Assembly: GCA_965207225.1 (NCBI GenBank)
Contig: CBDBLV010000001.1
Span: 160,001-224,000 of the forward strand
Reading direction: 5' to 3'
DNA length: 64,000 nt
DNA from: Dehalococcoidia bacterium
GTDB taxonomy: Bacteria > Chloroflexota > Dehalococcoidia > Plut-88900
Shown here piece by piece: positions 3,952 to 39,182 of the stretch; positions within the stretch are counted from its first letter, which is position 1; each line of letters begins with the position of its first letter. The position numbers and the translations under genes were made by a program. The notes below the pieces were generated by a model. It ran no database searches and was not told the origin of the DNA. It saw nothing but the letters and a program-made list of their open reading frames with translations.

Positions 3952-4029
3952 TGCGCCACCTCCTCGGTTGATGTTTCCCGATCGGCCTCCTCGTCCAAAT
4001 GGCAGAGGTCGGCCCGTTCCCAAGCCCGG

Positions 4030-4470
4030 CTAAGCGGAATCCCGCAACCCTTTGTCGGCGCTGCCATTCAGGGAGTCAGCCACTGCTGCGACCAGCAGGG
4101 CCATCGCGGTGGGCAGGTAGAACAGCCCGATGGAGAGTATCCCCACAAGGCATAAGGCCAGGAGAGCCAGCGCCGATATCCACAACAACGCCTTTCGCCT
4201 CGCCAGCCCGGCATCGGTGAAACGGATGACCAGCAGCGTTAGGCCAGAGAACAGAATGGGAATGAGCAGCAGCCAGAGCACGTACAGACCATTCACTTCC
4301 ACCAGGGTGGCGGTGTGCCTTGTCACCTCTCCCGCAGGCTCACCCGGCATGGACAGAGTGACCGATACACCCCGATAGACGGGTGCGAAGACGAACCAGA
4401 GCCCGGCGACCCAGGCCAGCGCATGGGCTACCCACGCCGAGATCGCGGCAACTCCGGCTCGCTTCATCAT
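4030..4470 (-). CDS. Membrane protein (about 4 TM), unknown function
   Basis: Four hydrophobic segments. Confidence 0.7.
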   Translation of the reverse strand: MMKRAGVAAISAWVAHALAWVAGLWFVFAPVYRGVSVTLSMPGEPAGEVTRHTATLVEVNGLYVLWLLLIPILFSGLTLLVIRFTDAGLARRKALLWISALALLALCLVGILSIGLFYLPTAMALLVAAVADSLNGSADKGLRDSA

Positions 4471-4497
4471 TCCATCCTTTGGGCCAAGAAGCGGAGG

Positions 4498-4816
4498 CTA
4501 CGCCCCGTCCAACTCGTATTCAGGGCCAACCCACCGTATCCGCACCCACGTCATCGTCGTGTACATCAGGTGGTTGTAGCAGCGCGAAATGGCCTCCCTG
4601 GTGTATTCCTCTATCTCCTCGTCGCCGACCCCGCCCTCCCTCAGGGAGTTTTGCACCCGCTTCAGTATGCGGGACGCGTCGGGGTTGTCCGGGCTGTAAG
4701 TCTCCGTCCTCCTCGTCGTCTGCGTCATTCCCGTAATAGACGAAGGGGTACGCTTCCCAGATATCGACCTCGATGTTCGGGTATCTCACTCCCAATTCGA
4801 TCATTCTTCCAGCCAT
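4498..4816 (-). pseudogene. Small hypothetical gene split by a frameshift near 4705
   Basis: N-part MAGRMIELGVRYPNIEVDIW and C-part DNPDASRILKRVQNSLREGGVGDEEIEEY..YNHLMYTTMTWV lie in adjacent frames and join near GAGGAGGACGGAGAC. Confidence 0.55.
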
Positions 4817-4892
4817 TTGCTCCCCTTCATTCGCTTTCACAATGGGGTCTGGACGCTGCTGGTCAACAGCTACTTCTAGGTGATGCGGGCAT

Positions 4893-5321
4893 TCACTCCA
4901 TCGGGAGGGGCGGCTGTAGCCAAGCCATCTCCTGCGGCACCCCGAAGTGCTCGGCCACCTCCCAGAGCTCGCTGAGGCCCTCGGCCATCGCCTCGTCCAC
5001 GTCCATCAGCAGGGCGCGGGCGAAGTCCTCCGCCTCCCGCTCGAAGAGGCTGCCCAGGCTGGTGTGGTCCCGTATCCACAGGTGGTTGCCGGAGTGCAGC
5101 AGCCTGTGGCCTATGGCATGAGCTATCACCCAGCGTCGCCAACGGGAATCGAGCCGCTCGGCCACGCCGATGTACCGGTCCATCTGCATCTCCTCCTGGA
5201 CATCCAACGGCCAGGTCACCACCTCCAAGCCCAGGATGCTGGCCACGGTCTCGGCGTCCACCCGGCCCGACAGCTTCAGCTTTCGCCGCAGATCTCTGGC
5301 CTTCCGCTGCGCTCGCTTCAT
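4893..5321 (-). CDS. ImmA/IrrE (DUF955) family anti-repressor-like protein, HExxH altered to HAIGH
   Basis: RRRWVIAHAIGH..FEREAEDFARALLM. ATGA overlap with the upstream XRE repressor. Confidence 0.8.
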   Translation of the reverse strand: MKRAQRKARDLRRKLKLSGRVDAETVASILGLEVVTWPLDVQEEMQMDRYIGVAERLDSRWRRWVIAHAIGHRLLHSGNHLWIRDHTSLGSLFEREAEDFARALLMDVDEAMAEGLSELWEVAEHFGVPQEMAWLQPPLPME

Positions 5322-9116: not shown

Positions 9117-9144
9117 AGTTTCTGAGAGATTGATGGAGGTTTAC

Positions 9145-10728
9145 ATGGCGAGAAGAACCGATAGAAACGCGCCCAAGAAGCGAGCGGCCATCTATGCCCG
9201 CGTCTCCGACAAGAGCCAGGCCGAGGAGGACAAGACATCCATCTCCGAGCAGATGGGCGACATGGAAGCCTACTGCGAGGAGAGGGGCATGGCCGTCGTG
9301 GCACGCTATCAGGAGGTCGGTCGGGGCTGGTCGAAGAAACGCCCGGAGTTCCAGAGGATGCTCGCCGACGCCAGGATGGGACGCTTCGACACCATCGTAT
9401 GCTGGAAGTCCGACCGGCTCAGCAGGGGCATGTACCCCGCAGCCGCCCTCATGGAGGTCGTCGAGGCGTACCGCATCGGCATCGAGGCTGTCATGGACGC
9501 CATCGACATGAAGACCTTCGGACTCATGGCGGCCATCGGCAAGATCGAACTGGACAACTTCAGGGAGCGTGCCTCTATGGGCAAGCGCGGCAAGGCCAAG
9601 CAGGGCAGGCTGCCCACCGGGTCGCCGCCCTACGGCTATCGCGTCGACGAGCACGGCAACCCCTACGTCTACGAGCCGGAGGCCAAGTTCATCCGCCGCA
9701 TCTTCCGACAGTATGCCGAAGAGGGCATGACCGCTCCCGCCATCGTCCTGGGGTTGGAGCGGGACGGCGCGCCCCTGCCGCCCAGGTGCTCCAAGTGGCG
9801 CAAGGAGCGAGTCCACGCCATTATGAGCAGCGAGACCTACAGGGGCACCTACTGGTACGGCAAGAGCAGTTGGGTGACCACCGAGGACGGAACCAAGGGA
9901 ACGAAGAATCCAAAGGACACCTGGATAGGCATCCCGTTCCCACCCCTCGTGGATGAGAAGACCTGGGAGCGGGTGAAGGCGCGCAAGTTCAAGCGGTTCA
10001 GCCACTCCAAGCGCAACACCAAGACCTTCTACCTCCTCCAGCACATGGTCAGGTGCTCCGAGTGCGGGTTGTATCTCCACGGCAGGGCGCAGAGCAAAAA
10101 GTCCCAGTACTACAACGGGAAGCGCTACGCCTATACCCTCGACCCTCCCCACCGCTACTACCGCTGCGGTGGGATGACATCCCACAAGCTGGAGTGCCGT
10201 AGACCGGGCTTCATCAAGGCCGAACGGCTGGAGGAGTTCGTCTGGAGCGAGGTCAAGAGAATGTTGCAGAATCCCGGCCTCATCGTCGCTGGCATCGAGT
10301 CGCTGGGCTCTCAGGAGGACGACGGCTGGGAGAAGGAGATCGACAGGGTCGAGCGCGAGCTCAACAGGGTCCAGTCCGAGGAGGACAGGGCCATCAGGCT
10401 ATACGTCTCGGCCAAGATCACCGAGGCCCAACTCGACCACCAGCGTAAGTTCATCACCGAACGGCTGGAGACGCTCCGCAGGGACTTGGACGACTACCGG
10501 GCGCAGCAGGCGGCGCTGGCCGAGAAACGCATCCTCATGGAGAATATCCTGGCATGGGCAAGCAAGGTCGGAGACCGTCTCGACGAAGTGCCCGACGAGC
10601 AGCGCAAGGACATCCTGAAACTGCTGCTGGACCAGGTGGTGATCGACGGCGACAATAACATCCGGTTCACCCTCGGCATCCCCGCCGAGGATTTGGTGTC
10701 AGTTAAGTACCCCGAATCAATACCCTAA
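9145..10728 (+). CDS. Large serine recombinase (integrase of element 1)
   Basis: YARVS, DRLSR, PYGY, Zn ribbon (CSEC..YYRC..C) and coiled coil. GGAGGT RBS. Confidence 0.95.
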   Translation: MARRTDRNAPKKRAAIYARVSDKSQAEEDKTSISEQMGDMEAYCEERGMAVVARYQEVGRGWSKKRPEFQRMLADARMGRFDTIVCWKSDRLSRGMYPAAALMEVVEAYRIGIEAVMDAIDMKTFGLMAAIGKIELDNFRERASMGKRGKAKQGRLPTGSPPYGYRVDEHGNPYVYEPEAKFIRRIFRQYAEEGMTAPAIVLGLERDGAPLPPRCSKWRKERVHAIMSSETYRGTYWYGKSSWVTTEDGTKGTKNPKDTWIGIPFPPLVDEKTWERVKARKFKRFSHSKRNTKTFYLLQHMVRCSECGLYLHGRAQSKKSQYYNGKRYAYTLDPPHRYYRCGGMTSHKLECRRPGFIKAERLEEFVWSEVKRMLQNPGLIVAGIESLGSQEDDGWEKEIDRVERELNRVQSEEDRAIRLYVSAKITEAQLDHQRKFITERLETLRRDLDDYRAQQAALAEKRILMENILAWASKVGDRLDEVPDEQRKDILKLLLDQVVIDGDNNIRFTLGIPAEDLVSVKYPESIP

Positions 10729-10751
10729 CCCTCTTGCACGGAGACCCCCCG

Positions 10752-11315
10752 ATGCCCGACCAAGAACTAACCCGCTGCTTCGGCTCACCCGACGACCCCC
10801 TCATGATGTCCTACCACGACAACGAATGGGGCATCCCCTTCCACGACGACCGGAAGCAGTTCGAGTTCCTCTGCCTCGAAAGCATGCAGTCCGGCCTCTC
10901 CTGGAAGACCATCCTCGACAAGCGCGAAAACTTCCGCAAGGCCTTCGCCAACTTCGACCCCGAGAAAGTAGCCTCCTACACCGACGCCGACATCCAGCGG
11001 CTCCTGTCCGACGCCGGGATCATCCGCAACCGACGCAAAATCGAGGCCATCATCAACAACGCCCGACGCTTCCTTGAAGTCCAGCGGGAATTCGGCTCCT
11101 TCGACGCCTACATCTGGCAGTTCACCGGCAACAAGGTCCTTCGTCGGGACCACGAGACCATGCCCGCCCAGACCCCCGAGTCGGAAGCCCTATCCAAGGA
11201 CCTCAAGGCCCGTGGCTTCAAATTCATGGGCCCCGTCGTCGTCTACTCCCACATGCAGGCCACGGGCCAGGTCAACGACCACCACCCCACCTGCTTCCGC
11301 GCCCCCAAACCCTGA
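10752..11315 (+). CDS. tag: DNA-3-methyladenine glycosylase I
   Basis: YHDNEWG, LESMQSGLSW, IIRNRRKI, GFKFMGP, NDH..C. Confidence 0.95.
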   Translation: MPDQELTRCFGSPDDPLMMSYHDNEWGIPFHDDRKQFEFLCLESMQSGLSWKTILDKRENFRKAFANFDPEKVASYTDADIQRLLSDAGIIRNRRKIEAIINNARRFLEVQREFGSFDAYIWQFTGNKVLRRDHETMPAQTPESEALSKDLKARGFKFMGPVVVYSHMQATGQVNDHHPTCFRAPKP

Positions 11316-11405: not shown

Positions 11406-11723
11406 ATGACCGATGCCATCGTCTTCGACAGCCACCAATTCGTCAGGAACCTTATCGCCAGCGGATTCACCGAGCGTCAGGCCGAGGCCCTCGCCAGCGA
11501 GCAGGTCCAGCTGCTCAACGCCAACCTAGCCACCAAAGCCGACCTTGAAGCCGTCCGATCCGACCTTGAGGCGAAAATTACGAACGTCCAGGCCGACCTT
11601 GAAGTGAAGCTGGCTAATCTTGATGTGAAGATCGCAAGCACCAAGTCCGACCTGCTGAAGTGGATGTTCGCCGCCCTCATTGCTCAAGGCGGGGTCATCG
11701 TCACCCTCGTCACCCTGCTCTAA
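11406..11723 (+). CDS. DUF1640/CCDC90-like coiled-coil protein with C-terminal TM
   Basis: FDSHQFVRNLIASGFTERQAEALA..LATKADL..DLLKWM plus TM segment. Confidence 0.8.
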   Translation: MTDAIVFDSHQFVRNLIASGFTERQAEALASEQVQLLNANLATKADLEAVRSDLEAKITNVQADLEVKLANLDVKIASTKSDLLKWMFAALIAQGGVIVTLVTLL

Positions 11724-11748
11724 CCCCCCACCCAGACGTAGCTAACAA

Positions 11749-11958
11749 ATGACCACCATTGAGGAACGAGTCAGCTACGTCGAAGGGAAACTTGATTCCC
11801 TTGCCACTAAGGAAGACTTGGCAAACGTCAAATCCGATCTAATGGCTGAAATCAGCAAAATTGAGCCCCGGATCATCAAATGGATGATCGGCATGGTGCT
11901 TAGCTCCGTGACAATTGCCACTACCCTTGCCATCTTCATCCAGCGCCTTATAGACTAG
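11749..11958 (+). CDS. Short DUF1640-like coiled-coil/TM paralogue
   Basis: LATKEDL..IIKWMIG..AIFIQRLID. Confidence 0.75.
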   Translation: MTTIEERVSYVEGKLDSLATKEDLANVKSDLMAEISKIEPRIIKWMIGMVLSSVTIATTLAIFIQRLID

Positions 11959-12017
11959 AGGACCTCCCCACCCTGTGGTACAATTAAGTCACACTGCCAC
12001 CCCACCGGAGCCAACTA

Positions 12018-12215
12018 ATGACCACTGCGGACGAAAGACTGGCCCGACTGGAAGGCGCCTATGAGCACTTGGCGACCAAGGCCGATGTAGCCGTCCTGAA
12101 GTCAGAAATCGCCAACCTGAAAGCCGACCTCCTAAAATGGATGGTAGGCATGATGATTAGCTCCGTGGCCCTCGCCGTCACCGTCGCCATCTTCATCCAG
12201 CGGCTCATAGACTAG
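12018..12215 (+). CDS. Short DUF1640-like coiled-coil/TM paralogue
   Basis: LATKADV..LLKWMVG..AIFIQRLID. Own extended -10 TGGTACAAT upstream. Confidence 0.75.
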   Translation: MTTADERLARLEGAYEHLATKADVAVLKSEIANLKADLLKWMVGMMISSVALAVTVAIFIQRLID

Positions 12216-12466: not shown

Positions 12467-13420
12467 GTGATGCCCCGTATGCCGAAGCCACTTCTTTGGT
12501 GGTCCGACGGAAACAAAGCAATTAGCTCTGCACTCACCAATAAGGAGGTGTGGCTCTACGGAAGTGGAGTCCGGCAACCTGCACCGTTTCAAATTCGTCG
12601 CCGCAACTTACTGACAAGAATACCTAGACTCGGTCAAGGAAGATTTGGGACTTGGGTCACCGATATACCTACTGAGTATCTAGGTAACGGAGAGATGCGC
12701 AGTCAGTTTCCCTGGCAGGCAACCTACGTTTCTTTCTCGCCCGGTTCAAGTGAATACTTCTTTACAGATAACAATGAAGGGGTTTCTGGTTCACTAACCG
12801 TGTCTAATATGCCAAATGTCAAATGGCGGCAGGCGAAGCATGGTGAAATGGCATTGAATCCAAAACTAGATTTGGGAGGATATATAAGGGCCATATTAGG
12901 AAGATTCAAACGAGATTATGAATTCACAATTGAAGGGGAATTGATTGCTCCTCAAGACCCAGATGTAGAAATAACACTGCTTGAGCCTGGCACATCAGAA
13001 CTGCTTTTGCGTAATACGGCCCAAGACATTCTCTTCAATGAGTTCGGAAGAAGAACCATGAGTGAACCCCGAGCTGCTGAAGAACGAGACCCTCAGTACG
13101 ATGAATTATGGGGACTGGCTACTCACAAAATCCAACCCCTTGTGGAAGACATGCCTCAGTCCTATCGACATACACGCTACCTAGCATCAGCAATGCGCCT
13201 CATCAATTCATATCTGGGACGAAGATATGTAGACTTTGCGATTCGTGGTTCAAACCGCTTTACTGTAAATGAGGATAAACCTTACCCAATCTCGATAACC
13301 CTTAGAGGCGACGGCCCTGTAAAGTTATTGTTTGCTCTTCAAGTTCGTAATACTGATACTGGTACAACGTCTATCTCGGAGTTTATGCCGGTAGTAGTTA
13401 AGGAACCGCCATTCTATTGA
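12467..13420 (+). CDS. Low-GC hypothetical protein
   Basis: 317-aa ORF, visibly more AT-rich than its flanks. TATAAT upstream. No family recognised. Confidence 0.7.
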   Translation: MMPRMPKPLLWWSDGNKAISSALTNKEVWLYGSGVRQPAPFQIRRRNLLTRIPRLGQGRFGTWVTDIPTEYLGNGEMRSQFPWQATYVSFSPGSSEYFFTDNNEGVSGSLTVSNMPNVKWRQAKHGEMALNPKLDLGGYIRAILGRFKRDYEFTIEGELIAPQDPDVEITLLEPGTSELLLRNTAQDILFNEFGRRTMSEPRAAEERDPQYDELWGLATHKIQPLVEDMPQSYRHTRYLASAMRLINSYLGRRYVDFAIRGSNRFTVNEDKPYPISITLRGDGPVKLLFALQVRNTDTGTTSISEFMPVVVKEPPFY

Positions 13421-13482
13421 ATGGTTTCCTCATCATCCCACCCCCGACTCCCCATATATAATGCCCTCCGAGGCCCGCCACC

Positions 13483-14307
13483 GTGCAAATCATAACAACC
13501 CCAACCTTCGACTGGCTCGCAGAGCACGCCCGAGCCTGTAGCTCTCGCCTGCTAATCGGCAGCCCCTTCGTCAACGATGGCATCCTGCAGTTGACCGACC
13601 TCGTCCCCAAAGAGGCATCCCGCACCCTCGTCACCCGCACTGACCTCCGTGACTTTGCCTTGGGAGCATCTAGCCTGGATACCCTTTGCTCCCTCAGTAA
13701 AGATGGAGTGACCATCCGCAGCCTTCATCGGCTTCATGCCAAGATATACGTCTTCGACTCTTCGGTTGCATTGGTAACTTCCGCCAATGCCACCCGCGCC
13801 GGCATGTGGAGGAACTTTGAATGTGGCTTGGGCATTACCGACAGTGTGACCGTCAGCACCTTGGCAAAGTCTCTGCTTAGCGGATTTGACACCAGGGAAG
13901 AAGTGGACGAGGTTGGCCTCAAAGAGCTTCAGGGCATGTATCGCCATCTGGAATCAATCAAGGTAATCGTCACCCCTCATCCGAAGCCTGGTGACGACGG
14001 CCCTCCCCCGTCCAAGCCCACCTTCTCGATACCCGACAAGCAGGCACTCCTGAAGGGGTTTACCGGCTGGCGAAGACTCACCCTGGAAGGCGTCTTGGAA
14101 ATGCCGGAAGACGGGTTCATGATGGACCAGTTGATAGAGGTTTGTGGCCCGGAGGCGTCTAGGAAATACCCTAAGAACCGTTTCGTTACCGAGAAGCTGC
14201 GCCAGCAGCTTCAAGTCCTGCGCAACAGGGGACTAGTCGAGTTCGTCAGCCCCGGAGTCTACCGGCGGACGATGGACGCCGCCGACCTAAGCAAAGAGTC
14301 GCCTTGA
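13483..14307 (+). CDS. PLD-family nuclease fused to DpnI-type winged helix (putative Gm6ATC-dependent endonuclease)
   Basis: HAKIYVFD..TSANAT (HKD motif). C-terminal KYPKNRFVTEKLRQQLQVLRNRGLVEFVSPGVYR matches the DpnI/Dam-replacing wH signature. Confidence 0.85.
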   Translation: MQIITTPTFDWLAEHARACSSRLLIGSPFVNDGILQLTDLVPKEASRTLVTRTDLRDFALGASSLDTLCSLSKDGVTIRSLHRLHAKIYVFDSSVALVTSANATRAGMWRNFECGLGITDSVTVSTLAKSLLSGFDTREEVDEVGLKELQGMYRHLESIKVIVTPHPKPGDDGPPPSKPTFSIPDKQALLKGFTGWRRLTLEGVLEMPEDGFMMDQLIEVCGPEASRKYPKNRFVTEKLRQQLQVLRNRGLVEFVSPGVYRRTMDAADLSKESP

Positions 14308-15087
14308 ACCGTCCGCCGGTGTGAGCCGTGCATAGGACAGTTCCGCGTACTCCTCCATAGACTCCGCCCCCCAGAACCTCCGACCCAGCCCCAGCGCCGC
14401 CACCCCCGTGCTCCCCGACCCCACAAACGGATCAAACACTATCTCCCCCGGGTGAGTCGACGCCCTCAGGCAACGTCGTATCGATGCCAGCGGCTTCTGC
14501 GTCGGGTGCTTCCCAAACCTCTTTTCGTCCCGGCCCGGCGGAGGCATCGTCCACACTGTCTTCATCTGCCGTCCGCCGTTCTCCTCCCGCATCACGTCGT
14601 AGTTAAACGTGTGCCGGTGCTTGCTCCCCTTCTTCGCCTTCGTCGCCCACAACAGCGTCTCCGTGGAATGCGTGAAGCACCTGCGCCCCAAATTCGGCGG
14701 AGGGTTCGGCTTCTCCCACTGGATATCGTTCAGGATCCGGTACCCCAGCTGCAGCATCGCCATCCCGACACTCAGGTAAACGTGTACCGTCCCCGTCACC
14801 CAGATCGTCCCCGCCGGCTTCAGGATGCCGTGGCACTCCGCCAGCCACTGCCTCGTGAAATCGTGGTCGCTCTCCAGCCCCCTGCTCCGGTCCCACTCCC
14901 CCTTGTTCACCTTCACCATCCTCCCCGCCACGCACGTTATCCCGTCGTTCGAAAGAAAATACGGCGGGTCCGTCCACACGCAGTCGACCGACTCGTCCGG
15001 TATCGACGACATCACGTCGAACGCGTTGCCCAGGTACAGGCGAGACAGGTTGTCGGCGGACTGCCAGAACGGCTCGAGGATTTGCAA
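14287..15087 (-). CDS. Beta-class N6/N4 DNA methyltransferase, DpnA (M2.DpnII)-like, probable GATC specificity
   Basis: DPPYFLSNDGIT..VNKGEWD, WEKPNPPPN, FTHSTET, KHPTQKP, DPFVGSGST. Confidence 0.9.
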   Translation of the reverse strand: MQILEPFWQSADNLSRLYLGNAFDVMSSIPDESVDCVWTDPPYFLSNDGITCVAGRMVKVNKGEWDRSRGLESDHDFTRQWLAECHGILKPAGTIWVTGTVHVYLSVGMAMLQLGYRILNDIQWEKPNPPPNLGRRCFTHSTETLLWATKAKKGSKHRHTFNYDVMREENGGRQMKTVWTMPPPGRDEKRFGKHPTQKPLASIRRCLRASTHPGEIVFDPFVGSGSTGVAALGLGRRFWGAESMEEYAELSYARLTPADGSRRLFA

Positions 15088-15094
15088 TAGCCTA

Positions 15095-15150
15095 GATCAA
15101 GCGTTCACACAAGCTCGATCCGATCCTACCACAAAAAAGATCGACTGATC
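15095..15150 (-). promoter_or_regulatory. Methyltransferase promoter with five GATC sites
   Basis: GATC at 15095, 15117, 15122, 15139 and 15147. Minus-strand extended -10 TGGTAGGAT overlaps one of them. Confidence 0.75.
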
Positions 15151-15249
15151 TACATAATGTTGTATCCCATTCCCAACACCAATCCCGACACCATATCTAT
15201 GATGATCGCAACCCGCTCCCACCCCACCCCCGGTCCGGAATCCCCTCCC

Positions 15250-15546
15250 CCCCAGTACCAAACTAGAGGCAAGCGCCTGCGCCAAGGCGCAGGCGCTTGC
15301 CTCTGTTTTTTCTCCCCCTCTCCCTCAATGGCCCTGAGGGAGAGGGGGACCAAGGGGGTGAGGGTTCCCCAGTGGGGCCGGGAGGCATTCCCTCCCCCTC
15401 CGCCCAGTACTGAACTAGAGGCCCACGTGCGTGCAGAGCACGCACGTGGGCCTCTATTCATCTTTCCCCCGCTCCCTTAAAGGCCCTAAGAGCCTGCCCC
15501 GAGTCCCTCGAGGGGGAGAGGGGGACCAAGGGGGCGAGGGCTCCCC
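15250..15546 (+). repeat. Two tandem ~150-nt units: conserved leader, 19-bp perfect hairpin of variable sequence, REP-like tail
   Basis: CCCAGTACYRAACTAGAGGC at 15251 and 15403. Hairpins at 15265-15304 and 15416-15456. Tail GGGAGAGGGGGACCAAGGGGGYGAGGG. Confidence 0.85.
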
Positions 15547-17681: not shown

Positions 17682-17758
17682 GGGCCATTAGCTCAGGTGG
17701 TTAGAGCGCAGTCCTGATAAGACTGAGGTCCCTGGTTCGAGTCCAGGATGGCCCACCA
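17682..17758 (+). tRNA. tRNA-Ile(GAT)
   Basis: Cloverleaf with anticodon arm CAGTC-CTGATAA-GACTG, TTCGA T-loop and CCA end. TGCTATAAT upstream. Confidence 0.97.
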
Positions 17759-19335
17759 TTTTTGACGGTAGACAGAACCGAGCCGTTCAGGGCCATCTCC
17801 TCGGCGTTTCTCCCTCCTACCGGTCCATCCTGAGGCATGGGGATGGTGTACCGGAGGAGGGCGTTGTCGGGCATGACGACGATCTCCTTGACGAAAGACT
17901 CGATGAAGGCCCTGCGCTCGGTCAGTTCGCTCTCCTTCAGGAACTCGCTCATGTCCTGGGCGTAGGCAGCGATGGTCTCCACGTCGTCCAGCACCTCCCT
18001 GCGCTGGGAGAGGATGGTCCTGGCCTCGGCCGCCGAGTCCTCAAGGCGCTGTTGACGCTCCCGGTGCTCCCTGATGCGTTCCGAGGCGTCGGCCATGTCG
18101 AGGTCGGTGTTCTCCACCAGGTGCCAGACGCGGCCCAGCTTGCGCTTGACCTCATCAAGCTCGGCCTCGATGGTCTCCAGCTTCTGCCGCTGCTCGGCGG
18201 CGACCCCATCCATCTCCTCATCCACGATCTTGACCAGTTCGGTGATGTTGGACTCGGTGAGGACGTTCTCCCGTATCCTCTCCACCACCATCTCCTCGAA
18301 GCGTCGTGCGTTGAGCCTGGGGGTTGCGCAGGCATCCTTGCCCCGCTTCATGATGGACTGGCAGACGTAGTAGGCGAACTGGCCGCTCTTGGCGTCCTGG
18401 CCTGAGAGCGCCCTGTTGCAGGACTTGCACCTGACCAGCCCGCTGAGCAGGTAGGAGCTTCCCACCCTACGGGGGTGGTTCCTTTTGGGAGCGCGGGAGC
18501 GCATGAGCCGCTTGACGCGGTTGAATTGGGCCTTGGAGACGACGGCGGGGAACGCCTTCTCTATGCGTACGGGGTCGGACTTGACCTTCCCTGTAGTGCC
18601 CCAGAGCAGCGTGCCCGTGTAGACCTCGTTTCTGAGGATGAAGTGGACGCCGTTCTTGGACCAGAGCTTGCCGGTGGCGCTGGCGATGCCCTCGCCGTTG
18701 AGGGTGCGGGTGATTTCGGTCATCCCGGTGGCCGACTCGGCCATGTCGAAGATGCGCTTGACGACGGGAGCAGTGTCAGGGTCGATCTCCAGTGTGGGCC
18801 GCTTCTTGGCTCCGTCCTGCACCATGACGCGGTTGTAGCCGTAGGGCGTCCGGCTGGCGACCCAGAAGCCTCTGGAAGCGGCCTCCCGCATCCCCCGGCG
18901 AACCTCTTCCGCAAGATTTTCCGAGTAAAACTCATCGACCGACTCGATGATTCCCTCAAGGAGCCTGCCTGTGGCGGTGTCGTCGGCCTGCTCGGTGATG
19001 GAGACGACGCGGACGCCCTTTCGCCTGAGCATGGACTTGAAGGCGACGGCGTGCTCGCGCTTTCTGGTGAATCTACTAAATTTCCAGACAAGGATTTCTC
19101 TAAACGGGGCCTCGGGCTTGGCGGCCTCGTCGATCATCTTGCGGAACTCCGGGCGGTCGGCGACGCGCCCGCTCTCGGCCTCGTCCACGTACTCGCGGAC
19201 GACCACGTAGTCGTTCTTATGGGCGTACTCCCTGAGCGCCCGCAGCTGTGCGGCCACGGACAGGTCCACGTCCTGTCTGTCGCTGGAGACCCTGGCGTAG
19301 AGGGCCACGGGGGTGTAGTCGCTTCTATTGTTCAT
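17701..19335 (-). CDS. Large serine recombinase (integrase of element 2)
   Basis: YARVSS, SRFTR, PYGY, CKSC..YYVC..C. The last codons are antisense to the tRNA. GAGGAGG RBS before ATG at 19335. Confidence 0.95.
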   Translation of the reverse strand: MNNRSDYTPVALYARVSSDRQDVDLSVAAQLRALREYAHKNDYVVVREYVDEAESGRVADRPEFRKMIDEAAKPEAPFREILVWKFSRFTRKREHAVAFKSMLRRKGVRVVSITEQADDTATGRLLEGIIESVDEFYSENLAEEVRRGMREAASRGFWVASRTPYGYNRVMVQDGAKKRPTLEIDPDTAPVVKRIFDMAESATGMTEITRTLNGEGIASATGKLWSKNGVHFILRNEVYTGTLLWGTTGKVKSDPVRIEKAFPAVVSKAQFNRVKRLMRSRAPKRNHPRRVGSSYLLSGLVRCKSCNRALSGQDAKSGQFAYYVCQSIMKRGKDACATPRLNARRFEEMVVERIRENVLTESNITELVKIVDEEMDGVAAEQRQKLETIEAELDEVKRKLGRVWHLVENTDLDMADASERIREHRERQQRLEDSAAEARTILSQRREVLDDVETIAAYAQDMSEFLKESELTERRAFIESFVKEIVVMPDNALLRYTIPMPQDGPVGGRNAEEMALNGSVLSTVKNGGPSWTRTRDLSLIRTAL

Positions 19336-19379
19336 CTGTGAGTCCTCCTCCTGTTTCCTGTCGTTCCCGTGGGCCACTA

Positions 19380-19745
19380 CTAGCCTGCAACACCCGGCAT
19401 CGTCGTCATCGAACCCGTGTCTTCCCCAAGCGCGCTGACCATTTCACGCGGAAGGATGCCCTCGATCTGTTCAGCCTCGGAACGCTCGGCGTGGTAGAGG
19501 TCCCAACGGAGTTGCAGGTTCATCCAAAAGCCGGGCGAAGTGCCGAAGAACCTAGAGAGCCTCAGGGCGGTGCTTGGCGTGACCCCCCGCTTCCCTCGGA
19601 CGACTTCGTTGACCCTCTGATAGGGCACGTGAATGGCATTGGACAGGTCGCGCTGAGTCATTCCGAGGGGCAGCAGGAACTCCGTCAGAAGCATCTCGCC
19701 CGGATGCGTAGGCTCTCGATCGGTGGGAATGCGTACCATGCTCAT
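19380..19745 (-). CDS. higA: HigA antitoxin
   Basis: PTHPGEMLL..TALRLSRFFGTSPGFWMNLQ. Confidence 0.92.
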   Translation of the reverse strand: MSMVRIPTDREPTHPGEMLLTEFLLPLGMTQRDLSNAIHVPYQRVNEVVRGKRGVTPSTALRLSRFFGTSPGFWMNLQLRWDLYHAERSEAEQIEGILPREMVSALGEDTGSMTTMPGVAG

Positions 19746-19753
19746 TCTCCTCT

Positions 19754-20047
19754 TCAGTGATAGTCGGTGATTTCGACGTCGGCGGGTCCGGCAGGTGTCC
19801 ACGTGAAGCAGATTCGATACCTGTCGTTGACGCGAATACTGTGTTGCCCGCTTCGATCTCCGGCCAGCCGTTCCAGGCGGTTGCCGGGAGGTATTCTGAG
19901 GTCTCCCAGAACGGAGGCGGAATCGATCTGGTCAAGCTTTCGATGAGCCACTCCCCATATCGGCATGGGACATGCCCGCAGGGCCGCTTGAGTGGATTGC
20001 CCGTTGAAGATGTCCTCTGTACCGCCGTCTCTGAATGAGACAATCAT
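19754..20047 (-). CDS. higB: HigB (RelE-like) toxin
   Basis: DLRIPPGNRLERLAGDRSGQHSIRVNDRYRICF..VEITDYH. Toxin-first gene order. Confidence 0.92.
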   Translation of the reverse strand: MIVSFRDGGTEDIFNGQSTQAALRACPMPIWGVAHRKLDQIDSASVLGDLRIPPGNRLERLAGDRSGQHSIRVNDRYRICFTWTPAGPADVEITDYH

Positions 20048-21141: not shown

Positions 21142-22803
21142 TCATTTCGCTTCCGTCGGCAGGGACTGGGGCGGCTCCCATGCGGCGTCCGGGGTGCGCC
21201 AGGCGCGTCCCAGCGGTCCCAGGGAGTCGATGGCTTCTTTGTGGGAGACCCACAGGGGGACCGTGACCCGGCTGGCCTGCATCCGCTCCCTCGCCACGCG
21301 CAGGAAGTGGGTGGCGGCGATGTCGTCGTCGAAGACGATGAGAACGGCGGGTCTGGCCCCGTGGTCGTCGATGGGACGGTGGGACGAGTAGTAGCGCAGA
21401 TAGGGGGCGAGGCGCGTCGCCATCGTCGAGGGCCGAACGGCCCTTCGCTCCCACTCCAGGAAGAAGGCCCACGTCTCTTCGGCCCTGCGCAGGACGCCGA
21501 AGGCGTCGGGGTAGACGGCGCGCAACCGTTCGTCGTGGCGGAAGTGGCGGGACGCCCTCCTGGGCGGGTCGAGCTGCGCTATCTCCCAGCCCAGGTGCCG
21601 GGCCTGGGCCGCAAGCGCGGACAGGAAGACGTGGACGGCCTCGGTGTGCTCGATGTTCCTGAGAAGCTGGCGGCTCCTGCTGCCGGTGAGGTTGCGCCAC
21701 TCGAAAGGCCCTTTGGCGTCCTCCGGGGCGACGCTCAACCTCCTCCTCGCCGCCGCCACCGAGGTCCTGTCCCTGCGGGCGAGGAGGGCCAGTCCCCGGT
21801 CGGTGAGGGCCAGCCGTCCCTCCGCTTCGCGGGGCCTGACGACGAGGCTGAAGCCCTCCAGTGGATTGACGATCTGGGAAGCCCGCTGGGGCGATACGCC
21901 CAACAGACCGGCGAGTTCGCCGAGGGCGATCCAGGGCCAGTCGAATACCAGGTCGAGGGCGCGCTTCTCGGCGGGTCTGAGCGTCACGGGCAGCATGTGG
22001 TCGGCCATGTCGGCTACCGTTCCCATGACGGGCAGGTCTGCGGGGACCGACGCCAGTCCGGGCTGCGGCTCCCCCGGAAACGCGCCGCGGGGGTCGGTCC
22101 TGTCCAACGAATAGCGCAGGCCCACGGCTGCGTGGACCTGGGCCGGAGTCCAGATCGGGGCGTCTACGTCGGCCATGACCGTCTCGCGTTCGACGGCCAG
22201 GAGGGACGGAACGTCTGTGGTCGAGAGCATCCTGCGGGCGTGCCTGAGACGCACGGCGTCCGTCGTGAGGACGAGGACGACTCCGGGCATGGGTTCGTCC
22301 TTCAGTCGCCAGAGGCGCTGGGCGAAGACCGAGCGGTCGGCGGTGAGTCCCTGCCTGACGATTCCGACGGTCCTGCCGTCGGGAAGTTCCATACCCGCGT
22401 CCAGCTTGGATGAGCGGTACCAGCGGAAACGCAGGGGGTAGGCAACGTCGGAAGCGAGAGATGCGACGTGGTATATGGAAGCCAGGGCGTCCATGCGCTC
22501 CATCAGGCTTCGCCGCCACTCGGCGGAGACGGGGTGTGTACGCACCAGGTCGTCAAGCGACATCCCGTCCTCATCTGCAAGCCTGCGCAGCCCCGCCCCG
22601 GTGAGGTGGAACCTCCGGGAGGGTGGAAAGGGATCGACGGCGTGGAGCACGGAGCCGCAGAGGCCGTCTGCCTGAAGTCTCTCCACGGCCTCGTGGACCG
22701 CGCCCTTGGACCGGCCCGTGACCGGGACCATCTCCCGGCGATTGAGGTAGGGCATGTCGGCCAGGATGCGGATGATCTGAGCTTCCAGTCCCGCGGGTCT
22801 CAT
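21142..22803 (-). CDS. Replication-relaxation family protein
   Basis: IEHTEAVH, YPDAFG, FFLEWERRAVRPS. Paralogue of 1173-2855. Confidence 0.75.
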   Translation of the reverse strand: MRPAGLEAQIIRILADMPYLNRREMVPVTGRSKGAVHEAVERLQADGLCGSVLHAVDPFPPSRRFHLTGAGLRRLADEDGMSLDDLVRTHPVSAEWRRSLMERMDALASIYHVASLASDVAYPLRFRWYRSSKLDAGMELPDGRTVGIVRQGLTADRSVFAQRLWRLKDEPMPGVVLVLTTDAVRLRHARRMLSTTDVPSLLAVERETVMADVDAPIWTPAQVHAAVGLRYSLDRTDPRGAFPGEPQPGLASVPADLPVMGTVADMADHMLPVTLRPAEKRALDLVFDWPWIALGELAGLLGVSPQRASQIVNPLEGFSLVVRPREAEGRLALTDRGLALLARRDRTSVAAARRRLSVAPEDAKGPFEWRNLTGSRSRQLLRNIEHTEAVHVFLSALAAQARHLGWEIAQLDPPRRASRHFRHDERLRAVYPDAFGVLRRAEETWAFFLEWERRAVRPSTMATRLAPYLRYYSSHRPIDDHGARPAVLIVFDDDIAATHFLRVARERMQASRVTVPLWVSHKEAIDSLGPLGRAWRTPDAAWEPPQSLPTEAK

Positions 22804-25331
22804 TCTCCGACCTCCTCGTCCTCTTCGTCGGTGTGGTTCTCGGTCGCCTGCTCGTCGTTCTCCTCCCGTTCGGCCTGCTCCAATGCCTCGACGCCCTTGT
22901 GAAATTCGTCCACCTTCCCGTGGCCCTCGGCGTCGGCGTAGTCTCCCTGGCGGGCCGATACGGTGTAGCCTTGCGTAGCTGCACGTATGCGGTCGGCGAC
23001 CGATGGGTCTCCTTCCTCAGGCTTGCGCACCTCCATCGAGAAGGCGGGCATCCGCTCGGTGCCCACGGTGGCGCGGACGTAGCAGTGGTGCACGGGCAGG
23101 GACACGACGTCGTCCTCGGACACCCGGTCCTTGCCAAGCTCCCACACCAGGGTCCTGGCGTCTGAGCCGGCCACCTGGAAGACGGCGAGGCACCCCACGT
23201 TGGCGAGGATGGTGTCCCGCATGGTGCGGGAGAGGTCGTCCAGCTTGGCCAGGCTCTGGGTCGCCAGCACGAAGGACGCTCCGAACTTCCCAAGCTCGCT
23301 GAGCATCGACTCGTAGTCCACGCCGGGCATGGACTGCATCTCGTCCACGACGACCAGCGCGCCGCGACGTTCCCTGAGAGACAGGCTTCCCTGCTCCCGT
23401 ATCACGGCGTCCACCAGGTTCAGGAGCGACGCGCCCACCAGGGCGGCCACGTCCCTGCCCACCGTTCCCTGGGAGGTGGAGACCAGCAGCACGCCGCCGT
23501 CGTGGATGGTCCTTCTCAGGTCGATGGTGGAGCGGCGCTGCCCGAGGATGGCCCTCGCCCGCTTGGAGGACGCGTAGTAGGAGAGACGGGTCTGGACGGG
23601 GGCCAGGGCCTCCGCCTTGTACTGGCGGCCCCACTTGCCGAAGTCCCTGGCCCACCACTCCAGCAGGTAGGGGTCGGAGACCCTCTTGCGCACCTGCTTG
23701 GCGAACTCATCGTCCGAGAGCAGCTTCAGGCCGTCGAGGATGGTGTACTGCTGTTCGGCCTCCATCTGCTCGTTGGCCTCGTGGAGGGTCTTGACGGTCT
23801 GTTCCAGGATCGACTGCATCCTCGGTCCCCACTGGTCCCAGAGGCCCTTGGCCACCCGCACCACCGAGTCGGCGGTGCGGTCGCGGTCTGCGAATATGCG
23901 GGTGTCCAGCAGATTGACGCCGGGGGAACGGCTCGCGTCCGACAGGTCTATCAGCCTCACCCTGTCGGCTATCTCCTCCGGGACGTGTTCGAGGATGCCC
24001 GCCACCAGGTCGGTGTGGGGGTCTATGACGACGATGGCGTCTTCGTCCCTGCCCGCCGCCTTCTCCCGCATCTTGTGGGCGACCACGTGGTGCATCAGCG
24101 TGGACTTGCCCATGCGGGTGCGGGCCACGTAGAGGTGGTGACGGCGCAGCAGGTCGTCGGGGAATCTGATCTCCCTCTTGGTACCCGCCGTGGTGTCGCC
24201 CACCAGCGCACCGCCCCTGACTCCCTTCGCCGACGGGCTGAGCGCCCGTGCGCCGGACCGCTCCACCAACGGCGTCTCGTTCCCCGCTCCCGGCGGGTGC
24301 CAGAGGCAGGCGGCCTCCCGCACCCCCAGGACGCTGCGCCTGCCGAACAGGCCGGGGCCTGTGGGATGCAGGTTCTCCGGGGCGGGAGCGACGGGCCTTA
24401 CCTTGCTCACCTTGAACCTCGCCCCTGCCGGGTTGTCGAAGTGCCGGTAGGCGGCGGCAACCCTCCTCATGAGCTCCTCGGCCCGCTCGCGCCCCGTGTC
24501 GTCCGGCATGATCGCCGTGACCCGTATCTCGGCGTCGAAGGCGATGCGGGAGACCTTCTCCCTGATGAGCAGGGGGTCTTCGACCCGGTTCCTCGCCTTC
24601 TTGAAGCGGTGCCATGCCCAGCCTCCGACTCCAAGCCCCAGGGCCGCGCCGACGCCGATAAGCACGGCCTTCCACGTCTCTCCGTCCTGCACCCACAGGT
24701 AGCCCTGGAGGGCGGCCAGTGCCCCGATGCCGAGGACGGCCATGGTCACCCCGTCCATCTGGAGCGGCTTGGTCTGGTAGGTGTAGGAGGGCTCCCGCTG
24801 CTCCTGGCCGGGCCGCTTGTGGGCCTTCTCCATGTGGTGCTGGGACCAGTCGGGGCCGAGGGAGTTCAGCTTGAGTTGAGCCACCACGCGCTCCCCCTCG
24901 TAGAGGGACGACAGCGCGCCCATGAGGGCAATCAGAGGGTCGGAGCCGGGGTCGAGGAGGTCGTCGTCCCGGAAGGTTCTGAGGGGCACGTACTCGGGGC
25001 CGTCGGCCCGCAGCGTCATCGACCACGCCTGCTCGCCGTCTCCCAGGCGCAAGGGATCGTTGTTTGGGTCCACCTTCTCTATCCTGGCCTGGGGGTAGTG
25101 GGCGGAGATCTGGCCGCGTACCACCCTGTCGTCGATGCACCGGGCCATCAGCGTCACGCCGTCCATGTCTCCGGCCAGCTCCAAAGAGAAGGGCTCAGGC
25201 ACCGCGATGGACTGGAGGAGGTTCTCCACGCCCAGCAACGTCCGCTCACCCGTCCTCGGCGGCGTCACCGCAAGCAGCGCCGGGGTCTTGTCGGGGCTTC
25301 CAAATAGTTTGCGTATCGGGTTCTGTTTCAT
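22800..25331 (-). CDS. VirD4/TraD-like coupling protein
   Basis: Two TM helices, Walker A-like ARTRMGKST, VVIDPH and Walker B VVVDEMQ. Confidence 0.85.
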   Translation of the reverse strand: MKQNPIRKLFGSPDKTPALLAVTPPRTGERTLLGVENLLQSIAVPEPFSLELAGDMDGVTLMARCIDDRVVRGQISAHYPQARIEKVDPNNDPLRLGDGEQAWSMTLRADGPEYVPLRTFRDDDLLDPGSDPLIALMGALSSLYEGERVVAQLKLNSLGPDWSQHHMEKAHKRPGQEQREPSYTYQTKPLQMDGVTMAVLGIGALAALQGYLWVQDGETWKAVLIGVGAALGLGVGGWAWHRFKKARNRVEDPLLIREKVSRIAFDAEIRVTAIMPDDTGRERAEELMRRVAAAYRHFDNPAGARFKVSKVRPVAPAPENLHPTGPGLFGRRSVLGVREAACLWHPPGAGNETPLVERSGARALSPSAKGVRGGALVGDTTAGTKREIRFPDDLLRRHHLYVARTRMGKSTLMHHVVAHKMREKAAGRDEDAIVVIDPHTDLVAGILEHVPEEIADRVRLIDLSDASRSPGVNLLDTRIFADRDRTADSVVRVAKGLWDQWGPRMQSILEQTVKTLHEANEQMEAEQQYTILDGLKLLSDDEFAKQVRKRVSDPYLLEWWARDFGKWGRQYKAEALAPVQTRLSYYASSKRARAILGQRRSTIDLRRTIHDGGVLLVSTSQGTVGRDVAALVGASLLNLVDAVIREQGSLSLRERRGALVVVDEMQSMPGVDYESMLSELGKFGASFVLATQSLAKLDDLSRTMRDTILANVGCLAVFQVAGSDARTLVWELGKDRVSEDDVVSLPVHHCYVRATVGTERMPAFSMEVRKPEEGDPSVADRIRAATQGYTVSARQGDYADAEGHGKVDEFHKGVEALEQAEREENDEQATENHTDEEDEEVGE

Positions 25332-25379
25332 TTCTGTTACTCCTCCCTATGTATGGGTCTCTTCTGCGTTTTCGCCGTC

Positions 25380-27602: not shown

Positions 27603-27621
27603 CTCGGTTGTCTCCTTCGTG

Positions 27622-27954
27622 CTAGGGGGTGGGGAACGGGCCGATGCCGCTGCGCAGCAGTGCGGCGACGGCCTTGGCCAGCAGCACCAGCACAAGGCCC
27701 ACGGCTGCCATGACCACGGCGGTCCTGGCCCTGCCGCCGCCACGCTCCTCCGCGCCCTCGGCCATCAGGACGAAGCCCGCCCAGACGACGGCGAAGACGG
27801 CGAGTCCGGCGGCGGCGTAGGCCATTGCGGTCAGCACCGCGTCGAAGGCGGCCAGCATCGCTTCCTTCTCCGCCGGGGCCGCGCCGACGGTCGCCAGCGC
27901 AGCCCAGGCAAGGAGGATTGCCGTCCATGCCCGTCTCACCAGGGCCACTCCCAT
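27622..27954 (-). CDS. VirB2/TrbC-like pilin
   Basis: Hydrophobic hairpin AVVWAGFVLM..AVVMAAVGLVLVLLA inside the T4SS operon. Confidence 0.6.
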   Translation of the reverse strand: MGVALVRRAWTAILLAWAALATVGAAPAEKEAMLAAFDAVLTAMAYAAAGLAVFAVVWAGFVLMAEGAEERGGGRARTAVVMAAVGLVLVLLAKAVAALLRSGIGPFPTP

Positions 27955-29615: not shown

Positions 29616-29633
29616 TGCTTTCTCTCCCTTCAC

Positions 29634-29918
29634 CTATTCCTCGGGGGTGGGTGTGGCTGGGTTGGGCACGTCGATCTCCACGGGGTTGCCCACCACCGCG
29701 TTCATCACCAGCTCGACGACCCCGTAGGCCACCATCGCCAGGACGATGCCCGCCAGGGCGGTCATCATGGCGCTCTTGCCCCGCTCCATCTGGTGGGGCG
29801 CTCCCGATGCCGTCAGGTACAGGTAGGCCCCGTAGATGAAGAAGCCCACGCCCACGACTCCCACGATCCCCAGCAAAATGCCCACCAGGTTCGATATGGT
29901 CTGTGTCAGGTCTTCCAT
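29634..29918 (-). CDS. VirB2/TrbC-like pilin
   Basis: FFIYGAYLYLTASGAPHQMERGKSAMMTALAGIVL, typical of T4SS pilins. Confidence 0.8.
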   Translation of the reverse strand: MEDLTQTISNLVGILLGIVGVVGVGFFIYGAYLYLTASGAPHQMERGKSAMMTALAGIVLAMVAYGVVELVMNAVVGNPVEIDVPNPATPTPEE

Positions 29919-31055: not shown

Positions 31056-31058
31056 GAG

Positions 31059-39125: not shown

Positions 39126-39182
39126 ATGAGGCAACAATGAATTTTAGCATAACGGACCAGCCGGGTTGTGGCGGGCCGTCGA

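Follow-up and report, generated by a model that had tools for sequence, protein, structure and literature searches.

Among type IV restriction enzymes, nucleases that depend on N6-methyladenine (m6A) and carry a winged helix (wH) form a class that was described only recently (PMC11037411). Within this class, Helbrecht et al. (2024, Front Microbiol; PMC11037411) defined endonucleases in which a PLD nuclease domain is fused to a wH (PLD-wH); 27 were found and two were cloned, Aba4572I from the Anaerolineaceae and CbaI from the Chloroflexi, and according to the same paper no PLD-wH protein has been purified so far. At basal expression both cloned enzymes were less toxic in Dam-minus cells (PMC11037411; bioRxiv 10.1101/2023.06.07.544091). 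On induction Aba4572I was an outlier: it was toxic to a Dam-minus strain, with apparently lower toxicity to a Dam-plus strain. Its neighbour is an amino-methyltransferase with the predicted target CGATCG, for which the authors flagged possible self-restriction (PMC11037411). They found nearly all methylases near wH nucleases to be non-conflicting in specificity, reported frameshifted methylases beside PD-(D/E)XK-wH genes, and proposed tight control of expression as one escape from the conflict between a writer and a reader of the same mark; a rule of thumb in the field, given in the same paper, holds that a wH nuclease beside a methylase may not be modification-dependent (PMC11037411). The co-existence of such nucleases with Dam-like methylases is already in print as an unexplained puzzle (PMC11037411; bioRxiv 10.1101/2023.06.07.544091). 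In the present study we analysed a PLD-wH nuclease gene that overlaps a DNA methyltransferase gene in a 64,000-nucleotide stretch of Dehalococcoidia DNA (contig CBDBLV010000001.1, positions 160,001 to 224,000; hereafter the window, to which all coordinates given without a locus name refer).

As far as their description allows a comparison, Aba4572I and CbaI share with the window nuclease an N-terminal PLD domain, a C-terminal wH with a 6mA/GATC motif and an origin in the phylum Chloroflexota, and Aba4572I also has an adjacent amino-methyltransferase. The norm for PLD-wH nucleases is a stand-alone gene with no cognate methylase, whereas here an intact methylase gene overlaps the 3′ end of the nuclease gene. 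The accessible text of the published account describes no conserved two-gene cassette, selection on both genes, convergent overlap or GATC array (PMC11037411). Our search of the open literature (REBASE was outside its scope) found no description of the conserved cassette, of selection on both genes, of the DpnA-type methylase or of the GATC array, and the name 'Aba4572I' was found only in the cited paper and its preprint. The nuclease family and the writer–reader conflict are already in print, and the conserved GATC array is new here.

A nuclease–methyltransferase block under purifying selection

An earlier sequence-only reading of this DNA had proposed two genes arranged tail-to-tail with a 21-bp overlap, and the coordinates of the open reading frames (ORFs) confirmed this (Table 1); the hidden Markov model (HMM) profiles that it had named as a check, PLDc_2, DpnI_C and N6_N4_Mtase, all matched. 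It had also noted that no DpnII-type endonuclease or DpnM gene is adjacent, in agreement with our finding that neither PF04556 (DpnII-type endonuclease) nor PF02086 (Dam/DpnM-type methylase) was detected in the 54 of 60 window ORFs scanned by Pfam (the remaining six are small). Among these scanned ORFs, the operon of a Dam-like methylase, DpnA and a DpnII endonuclease was not found around the methyltransferase gene. No terminator-like site was found between the nuclease and methyltransferase genes.

Scanning species-representative genomes for the nuclease gave 296 stretches. Of these, tblastn confirmed 191, and we kept the best 80 as loci, mostly from metagenome-assembled genomes of Dehalococcoidia. 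A methyltransferase of the window type was present in two of them (L001 and L002, close relatives), convergent with the nuclease gene in both. Besides the source of the window, the cassette is carried by OZ240215.1 and OZ244800.1, and a close relative, OY764147.1, lacks the methylase. Identity to the window was 84–87% for the nuclease and ~93% for the methyltransferase, and the region 13437–15178 (~1.74 kb) formed one block ~86% identical to L001 and L002, with unrelated flanks. The homology begins at 13437–13439, and in the window a 13-nt direct repeat brackets the block. The overlap of the two genes is ~75 bp in L001 and L002, where the methyltransferase ORF is longer. Ratios of non-synonymous to synonymous substitution (dN/dS, Nei–Gojobori) were 0.105–0.171 for the nuclease (dS 0.24–0.67) and 0.070–0.075 for the methyltransferase (dS 0.36–0.53), and both ORFs are intact with all of the catalytic motifs in the window, L001 and L002. 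The nuclease and the methyltransferase are a unit that moves as a block, with both genes under purifying selection. The pairing is rare and specific to one lineage: the sequence-only reading had held that a pair not conserved elsewhere would tell against it, and although the pair is a conserved and selected unit in three genomes, its occurrence in just two of 80 related loci, both close relatives, means that this objection largely applies.

We analysed the nuclease by profile and structure comparison. PLDc_2 (E = 2.7e-9, aa 62–129) and DpnI_C (PF17726; E = 7e-14, aa 195–261) both matched, confirming a PLD nuclease with a DpnI-type wH, and the motif KLRQQLQVLR by which the wH had been recognized lies at aa 238–247. 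The single-HKD residues H85, K87, S100 and N102 were invariant in all 21 aligned family members. An AlphaFold2 model built with 21 relatives had a mean pLDDT (predicted local distance difference test) of 86.9 and a pTM (predicted template-modelling score) of 0.82. Foldseek matched it in the PDB to NucT (6ehi, E = 5.2e-6, TM score on the target 0.68), Nuc (1byr, 0.69), Zucchini, BfiI (2c1l, E = 2.8e-4) and DpnI (4kyw, E = 1.4e-5), and the Pfam match to RE_NgoFVII was weak (E = 0.0042, below the cut-off). No match to PF06044, the PD-(D/E)XK catalytic domain, was found in the nuclease, in contrast with an E of 1.5e-77 for the gonococcal gene at L083 2922–3788. PADLOC labelled the PLD part DrmC-like and aa 201–262 as mREase_II, 'type II methyl-directed restriction enzyme'. 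Identity with DrmC of the DISARM defence system was considered and rejected, as the DrmC HMMs matched the PLD domain only and the NCBIfam model gave 46 bits against a cut-off of 133; neither a helicase nor a DUF1998 gene, the context of DISARM, was found among the scanned window ORFs.

When two copies of the PLD domain were modelled together, the pairing score was 0.75 and that of the best control 0.00. Of 30 proteins solved as one-chain pairs, 20 reached the pairing mark, as did one of 23 solved as single chains. The runs shared ≥97% of contacts, the partner pLDDT was ≥91, and the predicted interface takes in residues 83–88 and 98–101. Dimer structures have been solved for related PLD nucleases, and thus this pass may merely mirror the likeness to them.

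In DpnI, the methyl pockets and the base contacts are made by five residues of the recognition helix, E228, K229, R231, Q232 and Q235, and the isolated DpnI wH binds fully methylated GATC far better than hemimethylated or unmethylated GATC (PMC3424567). On alignment to DpnI, all five residues that read GATC carrying m6A (Gm6ATC) were identical and in register in the window nuclease (E237, K238, R240, Q241 and Q244). The DpnI motif for reading Gm6ATC is complete, in support of the sequence-only reading. In 77 of the 80 loci the match extends to the recognition helix, and in these the K-x-R-Q-x-x-Q core showed essentially no change. The sole clade-specific change in the wH is H234F, and F234 is also found in seven further loci, of which six are solitary and the seventh lies next to an MT-A70 fragment; across the 80 loci we found no wH substitution that tracks adjacency to a methyltransferase. 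DpnI and Drg (type IIM, Gm6ATC-dependent) compare closely with the window enzyme in the PF17726 wH and its identical E-K-x-R-Q-x-x-Q helix, but use PD-(D/E)XK catalysis in place of the metal-independent HKD PLD of the window enzyme; the DpnI cassette has no methylase, whereas the window cassette has an intact one. Judged by its domains and motifs, the nuclease belongs with the PLD-wH type IV enzymes already in print.

We found 257 relatives at E ≤ 1e-3 among 1274 candidates, and nearly all of the 120 listed were ~270 aa in length and had both domains; when 1.84 billion representatives were searched with a profile, 152 proteins scored E ≤ 1e-30 and 1039 scored E ≤ 1e-10. The plasmid collection contained partial PLD-domain matches only (67 records, none covering ≥80% of the query), and no fused methylase–nuclease form was found among the longer proteins, which is weak evidence. 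There was no recurrent neighbour family in the 80 loci, the largest neighbour cluster being present in ten, and according to Pfam analysis of 216 representatives of the 291 neighbouring ORFs the neighbours were mostly housekeeping genes. A window-type methylase is lacking in 78 of the 80 loci. The family is mainly solitary, which matches the expectation for type IV enzymes. One family member, P0119 (376 aa), has two wHs in tandem, and L065 3561–5285 contains two tandem PLD-wH paralogues.

Other methylases do occur beside nucleases of this kind. A six-frame HMM search detected a beta-class methyltransferase segment within 5 kb in seven of the 80 loci (L001, L002, L027, L036, L037, L050 and L073). 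A methylase of another beta-class subfamily lies upstream of, and co-directional with, the nuclease gene in L027 (3770–5825) and L036 (3792–5813), and in L050 (3241–5798) a methylase and a BglII-like endonuclease lie directly upstream of it. L073 has a partial beta-class methylase copy, and Pfam detected an MT-A70 fragment in L047. Directly ahead of the PLD-wH gene of L037 is a 44-aa N-terminal relic of a DpnA-like methylase (4830–4970), which is 58% identical over aa 5–45 and ends just past DPPY, as though the nuclease gene had replaced the remainder of the methylase. In L003, the nuclease is truncated at residue 223 and there is no methyltransferase. A comparable arrangement was found in the gonococcal locus L083 (2922–5181), where a DpnA-like methylase 54% identical to that of the window comes immediately after the DpnI-family gene drg (Pfam DpnI, E = 1.5e-77, and DpnI_C). 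This methylase is interrupted, with an ORF at 4028–4405 only and a match spanning 4001–4720. The arrangement fits the published description of drg (PMC4269198) and the frameshifted methylases reported beside PD-(D/E)XK-wH genes (PMC11037411), and the L037 relic adds a third case. Readers of Gm6ATC have thus repeatedly come to lie next to writers of the GATC type. Most of these writers are dead, whereas that of the window lineage is alive. As side observations, the PLD-wH genes of L027, L036 and L033 are prophage-borne, with a phage portal gene upstream; L033, a relative of L027 and L036, has no methylase and has three GATC sites within 50 bp ahead of the nuclease gene. In L068 a BglII-like endonuclease gene (4330–4725) lies directly upstream of the PLD-wH gene.

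The methyltransferase and the GATC array

Pfam analysis matched the methyltransferase to N6_N4_Mtase (E = 1.9e-50), and the beta-class motifs DPPY (aa 40–43, 14970–14959) and FVGSGSTG (aa 221–228, 14427–14404) were identified. Its top matches were to CcrM, both in NCBIfam (211 bits against a cut-off of 830, covering model positions 4–248 of 350) and in the PDB (6pbd, E = 4.2e-53). CcrM reads GANTC through the Loop-2B residues R44, L38, L42 and P45 and a C-terminal DNA-binding domain (PMC6787082). In the window enzyme R44 aligns to a gap, L38, L42 and P45 are replaced and the C-terminal domain is missing. The CcrM/GANTC assignment was rejected, since the window enzyme has neither these specificity loops nor the C-terminal domain and is more similar to enzymes of the DpnA type.

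In the plasmid collection, identity to the window enzyme was 54% for a gonococcal chromosome record (the remnant beside drg), 49% for Staphylococcus plasmids, 47% for Lactococcus pSRQ700 and 46% for Lactiplantibacillus plasmids, and 38–42% for CcrM orthologues. The matches in pSRQ700, in a Staphylococcus plasmid and in an L. plantarum plasmid are the second methylase of a cassette consisting of a Dam-like methylase, a methylase and a type II endonuclease, and the genes flanking it in pSRQ700 matched Pfam MethyltransfD12 and DpnII. The window enzyme resembles DpnA and LlaDCHIB in being a beta-class protein of ~265 aa with DPPY and the Loop-2B/Loop-45 signatures, and is 46–49% identical to them over >90% of the length; it has the DpnA-type Loop-2B frame and Loop-45 (...FTHSTE...) and not the CcrM versions. 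It differs from them in lying outside a Dam–DpnA–DpnII operon and outside their clade, and in other central loop residues. LlaDCHI (LlaII) and DpnA have been characterized as GATC enzymes. In the DpnII system, DpnA is the methylase that acts on GATC in single strands (PMC3812788).

The methyltransferase family is very large, with at least 7954 proteins at E ≤ 1e-3 among the 8000 candidates scored and many of them 70–89% identical to the window enzyme; the phage collection contained one partial match only. In a maximum-likelihood tree of 30 rows the window enzyme fell into a clade (starred in the tree) with L001, L002, P0121 and P0127, within a large clade. The 'DpnA-like' label given by the sequence-only reading therefore stands in part: among annotated proteins, the second methylases of DpnII-type cassettes are most closely related to the window enzyme, but the tree does not nest it among them. 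From its DPPY motif we regard it as an m6A-type enzyme, with m6A in GATC the most likely specificity, albeit unproven given its position outside the DpnA clade.

Five GATC sites lie within 57 bp just upstream of the methyltransferase start (15087, minus strand), making this the densest GATC cluster of the 64-kb window; the runner-up has three per 60 bp. On random placement of the 191 GATC sites of the window, five or more per 60 bp occurred in 0.4% of 2000 trials. L001 and L002 have identical GATC sites with the same spacing (22, 5, 17, 8), and no cluster of ≥5 GATC per 60 bp was found elsewhere in the 80 loci. The DpnII-type cassettes L081, L082 and L085 also had no GATC array. When the region 15088–15210 was compared among the three genomes, the GATC columns were invariant at 24 of 24 positions compared with 54 of 99 other columns (Fisher one-sided, p = 3.8e-6). 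Moreover, the sites differ in the bases that flank the tetramer, and the genomes differ in the spacer that separates sites 4 and 5; with the GATC itself invariant, selection appears to act on GATC as such. Lying in the control region of the methyltransferase gene, the array lends indirect support to GATC as the target of the enzyme. On the coding strand, TGGTAGGAT is a possible extended −10 element of the methyltransferase and overlaps site 3. We infer a putative promoter layout that would place the transcription start close to site 2, the spacer and −35 region at sites 4 and 5, and the ribosome site next to site 1.

Avoidance of GATC and CGATCG was considered as a measure of restriction pressure and proved non-discriminating. 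The observed/expected ratio of GATC was 0.67 in the window and 0.61 in the pooled solitary loci, and thus GATC depletion says nothing either way, being equal in loci without the cassette. There were 4 CGATCG against 21.3 expected, and CTCGAG (0.20) and ATCGAT (0.30) were comparably low. Within the PLD-wH genes GATC was rarer than in the rest of the 80 loci (0.28 compared with 0.50 per 150 bp, as raw rates), and the nuclease ORFs of the window, L001 and L002 contain none.

Possible roles of the cassette

We tentatively favour, with somewhat less than even confidence, a writer–reader cassette held non-lethal by expression control. This reading rests on the unchanged recognition helix, the lack of a substitution that tracks the methylase, the DpnA-like methylase, and the array together with the overlap. 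Gene content, cassette unity, purifying selection, motif conservation and the GATC array are observed; in what follows, the two specificities, the dimer, the promoter and the entire gating logic are our inference. The pair would form a self-contained mobile two-gene cassette of ~1.8 kb. Its nuclease would be an m6A-dependent type IV enzyme acting as a homodimer, with one HKD active site made from two N-terminal PLD domains, and the two DpnI-type wHs of the dimer may read fully methylated GATC. The methyltransferase would be a short beta-class enzyme of the DpnA kind and most likely a Gm6ATC writer, and control of expression would keep the writer and the reader of one mark from acting jointly on the chromosome. 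One possible control is the convergent overlap: as the genes are convergent and overlapping with no terminator between them, transcription of either gene would run antisense through the other. Another is the array of five plus one GATC sites over the likely promoter and ribosome site of the methyltransferase, which might sense the methylation state directly or via wH binding. The net function would be restriction of Gm6ATC-bearing DNA plus conditional marking by the methyltransferase, in the form of a triggered methylation pulse, of marking of single-stranded DNA only, or of one state of a bistable switch.

Several points weigh against this reading. A writer and a reader nuclease of one mark should be self-toxic, and the gating that would avert this is presumed. 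The broken methylases of L083 and L037, together with the published frameshifts, suggest that such a conflict normally resolves by loss and not by control. In the methyltransferase the central Loop-2B residues are TCVAG instead of SNSGG, and in the 30-row tree the three DpnA-type and two CcrM rows fell together outside the window clade with a support of 82/90. Chloroflexi methylomes in print, as reported in the accessible text, include GANTC, TTAA and GCWGC and no GATC (PMC6329791). A scan of 13200–15500 for the sigma-70 consensus gave no sites, the promoter assignments being our own reading. Furthermore, the single published PLD-wH nuclease with an adjacent amino-methylase, Aba4572I, showed its induced toxicity in Dam-minus cells (PMC11037411), and a convergent, co-mobile nuclease–methylase pair is a hallmark of classical restriction–modification (R-M). 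The interpretation offered in the sequence-only reading, an inverted logic in which the methyltransferase would mark DNA for cleavage by its neighbour as a mark-and-cut or abortive system, accordingly remains with a mixed outcome: the Gm6ATC motif, the DpnA-type relatives, the conserved unit and the GATC cluster agree with it, but the pair is rare and classical R-M fits the architecture equally well.

A classical type II system (BfiI-like, type IIS/IIE), which we consider unlikely if still a serious contender, would have the nuclease of this sub-lineage bind unmethylated GATC, or a larger site that includes it, and cut there or nearby, with m6A protecting the host; the array would let the methyltransferase shut its own promoter once a new host is methylated, and convergent transcription would delay the nuclease. 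A two-gene convergent block with purifying selection on both genes is a standard R-M signature, and a PLD nuclease with a separate DNA-binding domain is the architecture of BfiI, to which the structural match (2c1l, E = 2.8e-4) and the weak RE_NgoFVII match also point. BfiI and NgoAVII combine a PLD nuclease dimer, a separate recognition domain and an adjacent methylase, as does the window cassette with its predicted dimer, but their recognition domain is B3-like and that of the window a DpnI-type wH. The intact methyltransferase contrasts with the broken methylases beside true methyl-dependent DpnI-family genes, and both the toxicity of induced Aba4572I, which was apparently lower in Dam-plus than in Dam-minus cells, and the heuristic that a wH nuclease with an adjacent methylase is perhaps not modification-dependent are consistent with protection by methylation (PMC11037411). 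However, DpnI and the solitary members have the same recognition helix as the window nuclease, and since the base contacts and the methyl pockets of DpnI involve the same residues, there is no visible sequence basis for a flipped methyl preference; H234F, the only clade-specific change in the wH, is shared with seven other loci. The DpnII-type GATC cassettes L081, L082 and L085 have no GATC array, and at basal expression Aba4572I and CbaI were less toxic, not more, in Dam-minus cells (PMC11037411; bioRxiv 10.1101/2023.06.07.544091).

We judged it distinctly unlikely that the two genes are non-conflicting neighbours, in which case a Gm6ATC-dependent type IV nuclease and a methyltransferase that hits another site, and so makes no substrate for the nuclease, would merely be co-mobilized, and the array would be a binding platform for the wH or unrelated to the methyltransferase target. 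This would agree with the report that nearly all methylases near wH nucleases are non-conflicting (PMC11037411), with the position of the methyltransferase in its own large clade outside the DpnA type, with its different central Loop-2B and its identity of just 46–54% to DpnA-type enzymes, and with the unrelated methylases or complete R-M systems that adjoin the PLD-wH genes of L027, L036 and L050. On the other hand, the flanking parts of Loop-2B and the whole of Loop-45 match the DpnA type and not CcrM. GATC is the only strongly conserved feature of the methyltransferase control region (24 of 24 columns, with varied flanks), so that the array would be left unexplained, and the two genes, with their 3′ overlap, have been inherited strictly together in three genomes at dS values as high as 0.67, which exceeds loose island linkage. 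Very improbable, in our view, is a relic of a 'dam-replacing' type of event, in which the nuclease gene landed beside a GATC-methylase locus or replaced part of it, and one partner is transcriptionally silent or being lost. The interrupted DpnA-like methylase that follows gonococcal drg (PMC4269198), the 44-aa methylase fragment abutted by the nuclease gene of L037, and the truncated nuclease without a methylase in L003 follow this pattern, but in the window, L001 and L002 both ORFs are intact with their catalytic motifs, dN/dS is 0.07–0.17 and the control region is conserved.

Within the favoured writer–reader reading, a more specific version, which we regard as doubtful, is a minimal defence module in which GATC is marked conditionally and the nuclease then destroys DNA that becomes fully methylated. 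The marking could be confined to single-stranded or rapidly replicating foreign DNA, follow an infection trigger, or depend on a heritable switch set by the array; self and non-self would be told apart by the timing or the DNA form of marking and not by the absence of the mark, and one cassette would in effect hold the pneumococcal DpnI/DpnII dichotomy. The phage growth limitation (Pgl) system of Streptomyces is a four-gene system in which DNA marked by its own methylase becomes the target. The likeness of its inverted logic to that of the window cassette is conceptual only, the systems being unrelated. The MANTIS preprint was considered as a precedent and rejected, as methylation there protects as in classical systems. 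Writer–reader logic, if true, would be a new way of discriminating self from non-self. If instead the nuclease is blocked by methylation, a DpnI-type wH with an unchanged recognition helix can serve classical R-M, and the annotation of such fusions would change. The window offers a clean and compact example under selection, with a candidate control element, in which the acknowledged open question is directly testable.

Features of the locus and its genomic surroundings

The features of the cassette are collected in Table 1.

Table 1. Coordinates of the genes, domains and candidate control elements of the cassette in the window
Feature	Position	Strand	Remarks
PLD-wH nuclease gene	13483..14307	+	274 aa, GTG start
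PLD (HKD) nuclease domain	13483..13902	+	aa 1–140; H85/K87 from 13735, S100–N102 to 13788; predicted homodimer interface
DpnI-type winged helix	14065..14265	+	aa 195–261; recognition helix E237–Q244 at 14191–14214
Beta-class N6-adenine-type DNA methyltransferase gene	14287..15087	-	266 aa, TTG start
Tail-to-tail overlap of both genes	14287..14307	.	21 bp
Left copy of 13-nt C-rich direct repeat at cassette border	13434..13446	.	92% identical to right copy
Right copy of 13-nt C-rich direct repeat	15220..15232	.	
Conserved block CATATATAATGCC, candidate nuclease promoter	13453..13465	+	TATAAT at 13457–13462, 21 nt before start, no GATC
Conserved control block upstream of methyltransferase	15092..15160	-	five GATC at 15095, 15117, 15122, 15139 and 15147; spacing 22, 5, 17, 8
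Sixth conserved GATC	15204..15207	.	

Upstream of the nuclease gene, at a distance of 63 bp and on the same strand, is an ORF of 317 aa (12467–13420, +). The GC content at third codon positions was very low for this ORF (0.40, compared with 0.69 for the nuclease and 0.85 for the methyltransferase). It was considered as a hidden partner of the cassette and rejected, being absent from all of the 80 loci and having no match in Pfam, NCBIfam, PADLOC, PHROG or Atlas; its AlphaFold2 model (pLDDT 34) was unusable. It looks like a recent foreign insertion. Further upstream (11406–12215, +) are three genes for small coiled-coil proteins with hydrophobic tails, with CCDC90-like Pfam matches and PHROG matches of unknown function. 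The middle one is 90% identical in DNA sequence to L003 4624–4833, which lies directly upstream of the truncated nuclease gene. Since the coiled-coil gene adjoins the nuclease gene in L003, the two may have been separated in the window by insertion of the 317-aa ORF and the genes next to it. A large serine recombinase gene, immediately followed by a gene for 3-methyladenine DNA glycosylase I (Tag), occupies 9130–11315 (+).

Right after the cassette (15241–15460) are two repeats of ~150 bp, each with a perfect or near-perfect hairpin of 19–24 nt followed by T-rich sequence, and related copies were found at L001 6803–7069 and 9501–9641 and at L002 6859–6970. These hairpin repeats look like an element of the repetitive extragenic palindrome (REP) or miniature inverted-repeat transposable element (MITE) kind, or like terminators. 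Beyond them, the ORF of a second large serine recombinase (17701–19377, −) overlaps with its 3′ end a tRNA-Ile (gat) gene at 17682–17758, and a HigA/HigB-like pair then runs from 19380 to 20047; the region 17682–20047 resembles the boundary of an element that has integrated at the tRNA gene. Conjugation-type genes are located at 49–2855 and 21142–31673, including two TrwB-like coupling proteins, a Replic_Relax relaxase-like protein, a TraC/VirB4-like ATPase and a type IV secretion system pilin, and the GC content was 0.65–0.70 in 1–3 kb and 21–33 kb, higher than in 33–64 kb. Together, the conjugation genes and the GC content suggest an integrative conjugative element or its remains. A DDE transposase gene (DUF772/DDE_Tnp_1) lies at 33593–35050 (−), and a transfer-messenger RNA gene adjoins smpB (38772–39641, −).

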